Positions 24,218-47,417 of a stretch of 64,000 bases of DNA are shown here, one piece after another. The DNA is from a virus (taxonomy: Duplodnaviria > Heunggongvirae > Uroviricota > Caudoviricetes). The stretch lies in the IMG/VR virus record IMGVR_UViG_2529292922_000010. The stretch is one strand, 5' to 3'. The notes beneath the pieces are model-generated. The model was not told the origin of the DNA. It saw only the letters and a program-made list of their open reading frames with translations, and did not search any database. How positions within the stretch are numbered: the stretch's first letter is position 1; each line of letters opens with the position of its first letter. The translations under genes and the position numbers were made by a program.

Positions 24218-24293
24218 TGGTGGCCCCTACCGGACTTGAACCGGTGACCGTGCGATTATGAGTCGCCAGCTCTAACCACTGAGCTAAAGGGCC
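24218..24293 (-). tRNA. tRNA-Ile (anticodon CAU, lysidine type); Met reading not excluded
   Basis: 76-nt cloverleaf ending CCA, anticodon loop CUCAUAA; very similar in form to E. coli ileX. Confidence 0.75.
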
Positions 24294-24320
24294 GGATTAC
24301 TGCCAATTTTGCTTACGCTT

Positions 24321-25148
24321 TTATTTCACCGGAACAAACGGAACAGCGGTATTACTGGTCATATACTGCGGTAATGTACCGTTCCATTTGTTGATCGCTT
24401 CCAACTCCATAACACCGGGGTTCTGGCGCAGAGCTTCACCACGTAAACGAATGGCATCAGCTTCGGCCTGGGCTTTTGTGCGAATAGCATCAGCCTGTCC
24501 GGCAGCTTCCGCGCGCAGCATGTTGGCCTCTGCTTCACGTTGTTTGACCTCTTGCTCGCGTTGCAGGGTTTTTTGGTTTGCCGTGACTTTGGCGTTAATA
24601 CTGTCAATAACTGTTGGCGGGTATTCTGGCTTACCTACATAAGAGAGGCTCATCACCTGAATGCCGATTGGCGTCATTTCTTCCTGAATGTCTTTAAGGG
24701 CTGCATCAAGCAATTCGGATTTGCCACCGTCGATAAATTTGTCGGTTGTCATTTTGCTGGCTAACCGGTTCAGAGCATCTGCAACCTTCTGGCGTAGATC
24801 GGTATCAGTAATATCATCTACACCTTTGCGATAGGTCTGAAATACCGTTGTGACTTTTGCTGGATCAACCTTGTAGGCTACGCCGATGTGGTAACCAATG
24901 GTTGTTCCGTCGCTCATCTGGAAGCTGAACGGCTCATCGTATGTCTTCATTTGCTTAAAGGTCGGGAAGATATAAACTTCAGTATTCAAGCCTGTCCAGT
25001 AGCGACCAACGCCAACTACTTCACCGATACCTTTATCATCCCCCAGCTTATTTACTTTGATCCCTACGTTACCTGGCTCTACCCGATCGCATCCGGTCAG
25101 ACATAAAGAACCCAAAATAATCGCTGCACTAATCAACGTTTTTTTCAT
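24321..25148 (-). CDS. plp: SPFH/band-7-like lipoprotein, 275 aa
   Basis: Signal peptide with lipobox LTGC; C-terminal coiled coil. Confidence 0.7.
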   Translation of the reverse strand: MKKTLISAAIILGSLCLTGCDRVEPGNVGIKVNKLGDDKGIGEVVGVGRYWTGLNTEVYIFPTFKQMKTYDEPFSFQMSDGTTIGYHIGVAYKVDPAKVTTVFQTYRKGVDDITDTDLRQKVADALNRLASKMTTDKFIDGGKSELLDAALKDIQEEMTPIGIQVMSLSYVGKPEYPPTVIDSINAKVTANQKTLQREQEVKQREAEANMLRAEAAGQADAIRTKAQAEADAIRLRGEALRQNPGVMELEAINKWNGTLPQYMTSNTAVPFVPVK

Positions 25149-25365
25149 TAATTAATTTCCTGGTTTTTTCACGAAAAAAGACTACTGCGAAAGCTGGGTA
25201 AATGAGCGCGAGAAGGACTCCCAACAATACAAGTATTGTGCTGTTAGATGAGATCATATTTGGCAAAAGCCAAACATACAGAACCAGTGACACAATCAAA
25301 CAGAGGACGGCATAAATATATAACCGCACCCATAGCGTTCGACATTTGTTCGGATTGTTCTGCAT
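25129..25365 (-). CDS. upl: Small two-TM membrane protein, 78 aa
   Basis: Overlaps plp start; position of P1 upl. Confidence 0.55.
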   Translation of the reverse strand: MQNNPNKCRTLWVRLYIYAVLCLIVSLVLYVWLLPNMISSNSTILVLLGVLLALIYPAFAVVFFREKTRKLINEKNVD

Positions 25366-25507
25366 CCTCTCACTCCATTATTTAACGAATAAAAAAGCTG
25401 CGGTGCTGGGTGCCTCCCGGTGTCCTTTGGCTGGTTATCCACCGTGGACGGGGAAACAAGGAGAAATGAATGGACTGATATAACCATTTCCCCGCGTGCG
25501 CTTAGCT

Positions 25508-25596
25508 GCATTCACCGCAACGGAAAGAGCATTCTTGGTGGACCTGTAGATTGGGATATGAACCCGTTACAGGAGAATGCTCTTACCTGTTACGTG
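25508..25596 (-). repeat. tRNA-linked hairpin element E1
   Basis: 13-bp outer stem enclosing GUAACGGGUUCAUAUCCCAAUCUAC core (T-arm-like); ends in CTTACCTGTTACGTG. Confidence 0.5.
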
Positions 25597-25768
25597 CTCC
25601 GTTTCGTGGAGCTAACGGCGGGTGATCGGGCCGCACCAGACTGGACTTATTTCAGCGTTATGCTCATGCCAGAGAATCAAACTGTGATGGTCGGTGCTGA
25701 ACTCCGACACAGGGTTGTAGCAAGCCCCGCAAAGCGCGCACTACTGTAGTTGCGGCACATCAGCCTGT

Positions 25769-25873
25769 GCATTCACCACAATGTTGAGAACACTGGTTGT
25801 CACGCTGCAACGCAACATTTATTCGTAGATTGGGATATGACCCCGTTACGCCAGTGTTCTCAACGTTGTAGTG
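25769..25873 (-). repeat. tRNA-linked hairpin element E2
   Basis: Different 14-bp outer stem (TTGAGAACACTGG/CCAGTGTTCTCAA) around the same core as E1. Confidence 0.5.
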
Positions 25874-26003
25874 CCGGTTACGGTTCCGGCCAGGCCTCTT
25901 CCTCAACGGGGTGTTCTCCATACGGACTACCGTTTATTGGTCGTTCCTGCGGTTTATGTTGTGAAGCCAGATGCTTATCTTCTGGTTGCTTCAAAGAGCT
26001 GCA

Positions 26004-26085
26004 CTTCATCACAACGGTAAGAGCACTCGATGCATTTAAGCCAAGCCCCATAAGGGAGAATGCCCTTACCTGTTGTGTTGTGATG
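26004..26085 (-). repeat. tRNA-linked hairpin element E3
   Basis: CATCACAACGGTAAG...CTTACCTGTTGTGTTGTGATG stem; different loop, no T-arm core. Confidence 0.45.
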
Positions 26086-26197
26086 ACCGGTGCTGATCTC
26101 CGGCTTGCGGTTATTTCAGACTCTCACGGGCGTTTAATTGCCCCGCCGAACAGCTCTTTTCCGCAATAGCTGCAATGTCTTTCGCGCATCAGCCTGC

Positions 26198-26292
26198 GCA
26201 TTCATCACAACGGTAAGGGTACTTCGTAGGGATTCGAACCCTCTGCCAAGCTCGGCGATCTCCGACGTCGCAAAATACCCTTACCTGTTGTG
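26198..26292 (-). repeat. tRNA-linked hairpin element E4 (tRNA-like, non-canonical)
   Basis: 10-bp stem GGTAAGGGTA/TACCCTTACC around AGGGTTCGAATCCCT (canonical T-loop); abuts 3' end of tRNA-Thr; does not fold as full cloverleaf. Confidence 0.5.
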
Positions 26293-26293
26293 C

Positions 26294-26369
26294 TGGTGCC
26301 GATTAACGGACTCGAACCGCTGACATCCTGCTTACAAGGCAGGCGCTCTACCAACTGAGCTAAACCGGC
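26294..26369 (-). tRNA. tRNA-Thr (anticodon UGU)
   Basis: 76 nt, canonical acceptor/D/T arms, ends CCA. Confidence 0.8.
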
Positions 26370-26371
26370 AT

Positions 26372-26447
26372 TGGCGATGGTGGATGGATTTGAACCATCG
26401 ACCCGTTGATTAACAGTCAACCGCTCTAACCGCTGAGCTACACCATC
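26372..26447 (-). tRNA. tRNA-Asn (anticodon GUU)
   Basis: 76 nt, 7-bp acceptor stem, ends CCA; 2 nt upstream of tRNA-Thr. Confidence 0.8.
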
Positions 26448-43277: not shown

Positions 43278-43304
43278 AAAGCTCCTTCGGGAGCTTTTTT
43301 ATTT
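43278..43304 (+). terminator. Rho-independent terminator
   Basis: AAAGCTCC-TTCG-GGAGCTTT then T-run. Confidence 0.7.
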
Positions 43305-43374
43305 GGAGAGGAAAGGGTGCATTGAGGATACCTGACACACGAAGAGTGGCGAGGATCTCTCCCCGCCAGGTCTC

Positions 43375-43530
43375 TTACCTTTCAGATTCGTAGGCTGTGA
43401 AGACAGTGACCTCCGTCTGGCCGGTTCGGATTCGTACCTCGCAGAGGTCTTTCCTCGTTACCAGTGCCGTCACAATGACGGTTAAACAGATGACGATCAG
43501 AGCGATTAACATCGCTTTTTGCTGCTTCAT
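43375..43530 (-). CDS. hok: Hok/Gef-family type I toxin
   Basis: 51 aa MKQQKAMLIALIVICLTVIVTALVTRKDLCEVRIRTGQTEVTVFTAYESER; AAGGAG RBS; overlapping mok-like frame 43382..43588. Confidence 0.85.
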   Translation of the reverse strand: MKQQKAMLIALIVICLTVIVTALVTRKDLCEVRIRTGQTEVTVFTAYESER

Positions 43531-43711
43531 AGCCTGCTTCTCCTTGACCTTTTGGTCGGTAAGAGGCTAATCTACGTATGCTAAGCATAGATGTGGCCTC
43601 AGATTAATGTTAAGCGTCTTGCAGGACGCGTAATGTTATCTGGGGCTTTCTTCTATCTGCTTTTCGGGTAATGCCTGAAGCAGATAGCCTCAAGCACCCG
43701 CAACGATTGTA

Positions 43712-43957
43712 TCAATGTCTGGCTTTTTTTCTATAGAAATCACCTGGAAGGGTGAATATCCACATCAGAAGAAATGTTGCAGCAAACATGATCCCTAATG
43801 GCCAGACCGCGCCAAAGAAAATCCATACTAAGATCTCCTCTGCTTGTTCTTTGCGGTCGATATCGACAAGCATTTTTCGGCTGATCATGTATACACAGAA
43901 GCCAATACAAACATATCCTGCAAAAGCGATCGCTAACTGTAAAAAATCAGATTGCAT
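43712..43957 (-). CDS. Small two-TM membrane protein, 81 aa
   Basis: ATG 43957 with GAGG RBS; track ORF starts at 44011. Confidence 0.4.
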   Translation of the reverse strand: MQSDFLQLAIAFAGYVCIGFCVYMISRKMLVDIDRKEQAEEILVWIFFGAVWPLGIMFAATFLLMWIFTLPGDFYRKKARH

Positions 43958-43987
43958 CTCCGACCTCAAACTGAAAACGCCAGGTGA

Positions 43988-44004
43988 CTCCAGATTAGAG
44001 CAAT
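43988..44004 (-). promoter_or_regulatory. Partial C1-operator-like site
   Basis: Minus strand ATTGCTCTAATCTGGAG; first 11 of 17 positions match. Confidence 0.3.
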
Positions 44005-47103: not shown

Positions 47104-47417
47104 AGTTACGGCCTCACAATCAGGTTTAACAACCTGCTACCCGCTGCTAAACAGGTGGCAGGACGTGACGGGGTTAGCAGACTGGCGATTGTGAAACCAG
47201 CAGGCCGAAGCCTCCCCATCACGCCCCACCATAATTTGGGCGTAACGCGGTTTTACGGACACAAAAATACCGCAATATCGGATATCTGCGGCTGTCCGCA
47301 CAATCATTCAGGCTGCTAAACCCGGTCGCAGAATTTGCTACGACGGCGGAACTATAAGCCTGAACGATTAAAAGGTCAATATGATGCGAAAAGATAGCAT
47401 TCGCGACTTAAAAATAC

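Follow-up and report, generated by a model that had tools for sequence, protein, structure and literature searches.

The window, by which I mean the whole 64,000-nt stretch of Caudoviricetes DNA analysed here, holds one copy of a hok toxin gene, on the minus strand at 43375-43530. Its product, 51 residues long, has the size and character of the small hydrophobic Hok/Gef toxins (about 50 residues), and its ATG is preceded at a distance of 9 nt by the Shine-Dalgarno sequence AAGGAG (43546-43541). The initial annotation had called this ORF as a Hok/Gef toxin with that ribosome-binding site, and both calls stand: the translation is the same, and it matches Pfam HOK_GEF (PF01848) with E=2.4e-22 and 78.7 bits (cutoff 22) as well as PHROG 251, 'MokW-like host killing', with E=5e-32. 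Its match to the NCBIfam Hok subfamily falls under the curated cutoff (49.5 vs 73). Alignment to the hok families places the protein closest to HokW and to the Hok of the Rac prophage, each sharing 47 of its 51 residues; identity to the Hok of plasmid R1 is 42%. This Hok is a member of the chromosomal/prophage clade (hokD, hokW, Rac), not of the plasmid clade.

A second minus-strand frame of 68 aa (43382-43588) starts upstream of hok and overlaps it out of frame. It had been noticed as lying in the mok position; it matches phrog_37205 (E=8e-21) and has GAGG as its Shine-Dalgarno sequence (43600-43597). Conservation was assessed on an alignment of the transcript-equivalent regions of 34 loci, comprising the window, phage 933W, Rac and chromosomal loci from Escherichia, Shigella, Kluyvera, Citrobacter, Photorhabdus, Erwinia and others. 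Across these loci the A and T of the mok ATG are invariant and its G is conserved at 90% or above.

A candidate hok promoter was found by the promoter scan on the minus strand at 43706-43733, with 9 of 12 consensus matches. It consists of the -35 hexamer TAGAAA (43733-43728), a 16-nt spacer and the extended -10 TGaTACAAT (hexamer at 43711-43706). The -35 is located within the 3' end of an upstream ORF of 81 aa, the TGA stop of which abuts the -10 hexamer and provides the TG of the extended -10. The -10 itself lies inside a block, reaching 43711, that is homologous to the hok loci of Rac and 933W. Position 1 of the Rfam model aligns at 43699 and other hok loci become homologous from about 43700-43702 on, which marks the 5' end of the mRNA; at the other side, homology to chromosomal and prophage hok loci ends at 43315. 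These limits and the fold define a predicted full-length hok mRNA of about 385 nt (43315-43699, minus), which runs from the tac element at its 5' end to the fbi element at its 3' end. The 400 nt from 43300 to 43699 fold with an energy of -154.7 kcal/mol (z=-7.35). No clear minus-strand terminator was seen beyond fbi; the hairpin closest to it is that of the bplB terminator, whose stem is followed on the minus strand by no more than UUU.

Two local hairpins stand out in this transcript. The leader carries a hairpin with a 10-bp stem at 43653-43687 (minus), exactly at the coordinates first given for it; this helix (helix 2) is 98.5% paired in the 34-locus alignment, with one pair changed on both sides. 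Just past the hok stop codon, a GC-rich hairpin, GGCGGGGAGAGAUCCUCGCC (43348-43367, minus), comprises helices 8 and 9, which are 96-98% paired and each show one both-side change. Following the R1 hok paradigm, I take this hairpin to be the 3'-processing stop of the truncated, active mRNA.

The two ends of the predicted transcript are complementary. The tac element GGGUGCUUGAGG (43688-43699, minus) pairs with the fbi element CCUCAAUGCACCC (43315-43327, minus) in a duplex of -21.2 kcal/mol, a value that none of 200 shuffled sequences equalled. This 5'-3' duplex is kept in 31 of the 34 loci, the end-pairing being broken in three chromosomal homologs (L015, L020 and L046), and one of its pairs, 6/418 in the alignment, covaries (U-A in 22 loci, C-G in eight). 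The window has GGGUGC/GCACCC where Photorhabdus has GGGCGC/GCGCCC. The tac-fbi pairing was tested explicitly by per-sequence duplexes, which are cleaner than the alignment because the Photorhabdus sequence is displaced by one column in the distal half of fbi when aligned with MAFFT. When applied to the 34 loci, RNAalifold did not return tac-fbi and chose a competing local stem, in which tac is predicted to pair with AAGCCCC (43648-43642), a pairing that is invariant in 33 of the 34 loci. In this model the local stem is the expected alternative conformation of a hok leader. Both the long-range tac-fbi pairing, seen as a duplex and by covariation, and the alternative 5' tac-stem, as an RNAalifold prediction, are therefore found at this locus. 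For the named structure as a whole, 95.8% of alignment cells are paired, as compared to 39-51% in a control in which the partners were slid, and 11 pairs show compensatory changes on both sides.

The antisense partner is predicted on the plus strand, at 43580-43650. This Sok RNA gene, about 71 nt long, is placed by its base-for-base collinearity with SokW as annotated in 933W (L003, 1767-1837). It has a 5' tail complementary to the mok start region, then a long terminator-like hairpin (-34.4 kcal/mol, z=-4.83), then GGGGCUUUC. Its predicted 5' end spans the mok ATG (43588-43586) and the mok Shine-Dalgarno sequence. The initial annotation had proposed a plus-strand antisense promoter made of TTGACC at 43545, a 17-bp spacer and CTAATC. 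A plus-strand candidate is indeed present there (43544-43573); its -35, TTGACC, starts at 43544 (43544-43549), however, and TAATCT (43568-43573), preceded by an 18-nt spacer, makes a better -10 than CTAATC, which is off by one base. The consensus promoter scan of the locus did not report this site, since its -10 matches at only three of six positions. The assignment as a candidate sok promoter is based on positional homology, 933W having TTGCCT...TAACCT at the same position, just upstream of its annotated sokW. At the level of sequence features, then, the locus holds an antisense Sok directed at the mok start region with a putative promoter and a terminator hairpin of its own. For sokW, the RNA has been shown by experiment to be the antitoxin (PMC8621323).

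The covariance-model search agrees with these assignments. Rfam RF01794 ('sok') matches 43525-43699 on the minus strand over its full length (1-157), scoring 114.8 bits (gathering score 59; E=2e-25). With this score and the z of -7.35 for the transcript fold, the features listed above are not attributable to chance. This 'sok antitoxin' family is matched in the hok-sense orientation, up to and including the hok AUG, to which the last model positions align; what the match marks is the hok leader, that is, the complement of Sok. Matches to RF01794 are easy to misannotate for this reason, the Sok gene lying on the opposite strand, within the matched leader. The range of 43340-43700 first proposed for the module holds the features that had been listed for it, but it is too narrow, leaving out fbi (43327-43315) and the hok promoter (43733-43706).

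A further conserved element lies within the hok coding sequence. The codon for Tyr47 (43392-43390) is embedded in CUACGAA (window 43393-43387), an instance of the motif YUACGAA, of which UACGAA is invariant in all 34 loci (alignment columns 320-334). The 3-bp stem that flanks it covaries through synonymous changes (C-G in 17 loci and U-A in 16; G-C in 23 and A-U in eight), and is a competitor of the long-range helix in which the hok start codon is sequestered. The motif is the same as that of the tRNA-Arg2 anticodon loop. In hokB, hokC, hokD and hokE, A-to-I editing by TadA recodes a Tyr codon to Cys, and the motif and stem seen here fit such an editing site.

Taken together, the Pfam and RF01794 matches, the collinearity with SokW and the tac-fbi pairing support the hok/mok/sok identification made initially. 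The locus is very probably, by its sequence, a complete hok/sok (hok-mok-sok) type I toxin-antitoxin of the prophage hokD/hokW lineage. With its regulatory architecture intact, and with a closest homolog proven to be a type I toxin-antitoxin, it is, by analogy, in all likelihood active. The post-segregational killing role that this identity brings to mind is much less certain.

The module is part of a replaceable cassette. Compared by BLAST with P1 (NC_005856), the window is homologous up to 43300 and again from 43994, leaving 693 bp (43301-43993) that hold hok/sok and the 81-aa predicted membrane ORF; the P1 counterpart is 1826 bp long and carries pmgF-rlfB-rlfA. This canonical gene set between bplB and repL, present at the cassette position in P1, P7 and JL22, is missing from the window, in keeping with the earlier remark that canonical P1 has no hok module. 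The segment replaced at window 43301-43993 includes the P1 genes rlfB and rlfA, for 'replication-linked function' (L002, 1905-3073). The left junction falls directly after the bplB terminator (43278-43297), the right one inside the C1 operator Orlf (Op55, 43988-44004), whose conserved half, ATTGCTCTAAT, survives, whereas its distal 6 nt are not those of P1; the promoter PrlfA has gone with the replaced segment. The module had been described as an extra one, acquired alongside phd-doc. The phd-doc genes are indeed present (1994-2592, minus), but the event was an allelic replacement, 693 bp for 1826 bp, and not an added insertion. Elsewhere in the window (24221-26447 and 47151-47357, minus), Rfam matches the C4 antisense RNA with its a1/b1 targets and three tRNA genes, the usual immunity and tRNA features of P1, which confirms a P1-type backbone. 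The bplB-repL slot corresponds to the published 'variable region 5' (rlfA-rlfB-pmgF); the literature counts eight such highly variable regions in P1-like phage-plasmids. The published descriptions of that region come without the hok/mok/sok identification, RNA-element analysis or allele counts given here.

The second gene of the cassette is the 81-aa ORF (43712-43957, minus), a predicted membrane protein with hydrophobic segments and a GAGG-N6-ATG ribosome-binding site. It matches phrog_3772, which has no assigned function, with E=6e-54, as residues 19-99 of a 99-aa ORF. That 99-aa mechanical call, which starts in P1-homologous sequence, is probably too long and the 81-aa version is preferred. 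No match to Pfam, PADLOC or NCBIfam was obtained. It is not a regular partner of hok: its tblastn matches in the phage collection come from P1-type records throughout, and lambdoid phages gave none. The ORF is found in both hok-bearing and hok-less alleles, the SJ46 version being 44% identical. It is part of the cassette, not of the toxin-antitoxin.

The transcriptional setting of the cassette raises a first alternative to addiction. The kilA, repL, 81-aa and hok genes are all on the minus strand, with hok directly downstream of kilA-repL, an operon under C1 control. A single weak terminator-like site (43755-43740, 5 bp) separates repL from hok, and the promoter scan found no promoter-like site for the 81-aa ORF. 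The module could therefore act as a lysis helper upon induction, in the manner of hokW-sokW of phage Sp5, Sok falling, Hok rising and membrane damage speeding lysis and raising phage yield; in that case, read-through from kilA-repL upon derepression could collide with the convergent sok promoter and so lower Sok. The half of a C1 operator that is kept at the right junction goes in the same direction, as does the identity of 47 of 51 residues to HokW: deleting hokW-sokW cuts Sp5 release by half, and mitomycin C reduces sokW RNA and increases HokW in a way that depends on RecA, the only role shown for HokW being faster lysis with twofold higher phage release after this treatment. However, the read-through and its interference with sok are here purely inferred, P1 has a holin and an endolysin of its own, and a read-through transcript would still contain tac and fbi and could stay closed. 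Moreover, about 45% of P1-type plasmids carry other alleles than the cassette, which makes hok dispensable for the lytic cycle. I therefore regard a role in lysis as possible, though rather unlikely.

These allele frequencies come from PLSDB, where a junction-spanning query finds the cassette with both its junctions, at up to 99.6% identity, in 262 of 507 repL-bearing plasmids (about 52%). The canonical P1 allele, pmgF-rlfB-rlfA, is carried by 99 of the 507 and a third allele, of the type found in phage RCS47, by 125 (about 25%). The cassette is also present in 235 of 5,426 complete E. coli genomes, the best matches again at 99.6%. Among phages, six records (five distinct genomes) have the hok module at 98.9% identity or above, and the same six match a wider 3.6-kb region, including both junctions, at 98.6-99.2%. 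The module is thus not particular to this phage-plasmid. The initial annotation had named as its counter-hypothesis an ancestral module shared by all related P1-type genomes; the distribution leans towards an ancestral or widespread state, with the cassette in about 52% and the RCS47-type allele in about 25%, although not all relatives carry it. The laboratory P1 allele is the minority one at this locus. Three contigs that are very short or of odd taxonomy, from Acinetobacter idrijaensis (L017, 275 bp), Xanthomonas pisi (L029, 431 bp) and a 'Candidatus Scatousia' MAG (L054), encode Hok segments with 100% identity to the query. L017 is also 100% identical at the DNA level to the hok mRNA region of the window. 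These contigs look like E. coli or P1-plasmid contamination of the assemblies.

The RCS47-type allele holds a remnant of the module. RCS47, SJ46 and 673R5 (vB_EcoM-673R5) keep the sequence from about 43565 rightwards, namely the Sok body, the hok leader and the 81-aa ORF (window 43565-43830; L005 2040-2230 and the equivalents in L006 and L007), while the hok coding sequence and the 3' UTR with fbi are replaced by an opposing ORF of 171-210 aa that has no family match. The 198-aa version of RCS47-type phages has no match in PADLOC, Pfam or NCBIfam. The hok -10 is degraded in RCS47, and the hok Shine-Dalgarno sequence is kept in RCS47 and SJ46. Another small toxin was sought behind this retained site, and the one candidate, a 53-aa minus-strand ORF, was dismissed: it is hydrophilic and antisense to the 198-210-aa gene. 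Upstream of the orphan Sok, TTGCTC-18 nt-TAATCT is conserved in RCS47-type phages. Judging from this, the orphan Sok may still be transcribed, and the RCS47-type allele could be a Sok-only 'anti-addiction' allele. The remnant was seen in these three phages and the 125 plasmids were counted by the replacement segment; if the 125 resemble the three phages, a hok-bearing state is ancestral to about three quarters of P1-type plasmids, since a truncated module derives most simply from a complete one.

The module might also be a selfish or decaying passenger that hitch-hikes with the cassette, silenced like most chromosomal hok loci and of no benefit to the phage-plasmid. Given that the allele with the leader and without the hok coding sequence is found in about a quarter of P1-type plasmids (as judged from the three phages examined), loss of hok appears tolerated and recurrent, and the end-pairing is broken in the chromosomal homologs mentioned above. 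In the window, by contrast, none of the known regulatory elements is damaged, and hundreds of plasmids keep the cassette at up to 99.6% identity, so that I consider a mere passenger improbable. Its occurrence at up to this identity, junctions included, in 262 PLSDB plasmids and 235 complete E. coli genomes suggests that the cassette is maintained by selection. A bolder proposal combines the hok-less alleles with the position of hok behind kilA-repL: hok/sok would be wired to the lysis-lysogeny switch and not to plasmid loss, derepressed kilA-repL transcription running across the 81-aa ORF into the convergent sok promoter would deplete Sok and make Hok a lysis accelerator or suicide trigger, and the hok-less alleles would confer Sok-only anti-addiction immunity against hok-bearing relatives. 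I think this distinctly improbable.

The occupants of the slot also invite a reading in terms of defence. They comprise a candidate defence system, hok/sok and the opposing ORF of no assigned function, to which SJ46 adds an Ail/Lom outer-membrane protein (L006, 2518-3033); this last is labelled 'replication protein' in KU760857, but 'Lom outer membrane protein' in NC_031129. The candidate anti-phage system with which hok/sok alternates is that of P1, where RlfA and RlfB match the PADLOC models PDC-M04A and PDC-M04B (E=1e-95 and 1.3e-51). Hok could likewise serve phage exclusion by abortive infection: a lytic phage would shut off host transcription, the unstable Sok would be depleted and Hok would kill the cell before the invader matures, thereby protecting sister lysogens. 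A preprint surveying Hok proteins reports that hok is enriched in prophages, as this would have it, but saw no enrichment of hok near defence systems, and Hok itself matches no PADLOC model. Phage exclusion is an unlikely role, though like help with lysis it stays in contention.

The reading that I rank first is the classical one, in which an intact hok-mok-sok in a variable slot is a second addiction system, for post-segregational killing, beside phd-doc. The following scheme combines the architecture described above with steps inferred from the R1 and hokW paradigms. The weak promoter at 43733-43706 would give a stable mRNA of about 385 nt, in which the 5' tac paired with the 3' fbi would render the message untranslatable and closed to Sok. 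Slow trimming of the 3' end to the GC hairpin (43367-43348) would free tac, so that the 5' end could refold and expose the mok start region. As long as the plasmid is present, the short-lived 71-nt Sok (43580-43650, plus) would pair with that region, block the translation of mok and the coupled translation of hok, and mark the duplex for RNase III. Once the supply of Sok ends, Hok would be made, insert into the inner membrane and kill the cell. A low-copy plasmid prophage is the context in which addiction modules pay off, and post-segregational killing is for this reason the default and most likely role. It is weakened by the membership of this Hok in the chromosomal/prophage clade and by the shown role of HokW in lysis and release; the Hok survey preprint also notes that chromosomal hokA, hokB and hokC failed to mediate post-segregational killing. 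On balance, I give the addiction reading about an even chance.

As a toxin-antitoxin the module is already known: it is a textbook system, labelled in hundreds of database records, as hokD by PGAP in the PLSDB copies and as MokW in one of the six phage records (MH422554), and Venturini 2019 labels it 'antibacterial toxin'. Literature searches found no paper specifically on hok/sok in P1-like phage-plasmids, the matches to 'hok' with 'P1-like' being concerned with other plasmids of the same strains, and neither P1 nor phage-plasmids come up in the Hok survey preprint. In nature, the majority of P1-type plasmids have hok/sok or the allele with its remnant, and the laboratory P1 reference represents a minority state. 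This is relevant wherever P1 serves as the reference gene set, and is useful for modelling the stability, incompatibility and competition of P1-like plasmids with antimicrobial-resistance genes.

Comparison with known systems points to a prophage origin of the hok unit, since the closest loci are those of Rac and the Stx phages and homology stops exactly at the transcript ends. The hok/sok locus of R1 (parB) has the same parts as the window, namely hok, an overlapping mok that is separate and out of frame, a Sok directed at the mok start, tac and fbi, and the 3' hairpin, and the window's leader matches the Rfam model that was built on the R1 family; the Sok hairpin of the window has an extra insert of about 16-18 nt relative to R1. 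Post-segregational killing is proven for R1, whereas the role in the window is assigned by analogy. Outside P1-type elements, the highest DNA identity is to the hok/mok of the Rac prophage (90.8% over 43315-43711), which has the same arrangement, with a 68-aa out-of-frame mok. The flanks of the Rac/hokD (relF) group are unrelated to those of the window, homology ceasing at the ends of the transcript; K-12 hokD itself, to my knowledge, lacks the upstream mok/sok part. The hokW-mokW-sokW locus of the Stx2 phages 933W and Sp5 (VT2-Sakai) is 86.5% identical over 43315-43711, and in 933W has the same leader hairpins, Sok body and promoter positions, with TTGCCT instead of TTGACC as the sok -35. The annotated MokW of 933W (L003, 1563-1775) is an in-frame N-terminal extension of HokW, which is due to a 1-nt deletion in the spacer (GG-CAAGG). 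HokW shares 44% with the Hok of R1. Toxicity of HokW, its neutralisation by Sok and a dependence on RNase III and Hfq have been shown by experiment, which makes hokW-sokW a working type I toxin-antitoxin (PMC8621323). The two differ in the element that carries them, an integrated lambdoid phage for hokW-sokW of 933W and Sp5 and a plasmid prophage for the module in the window.
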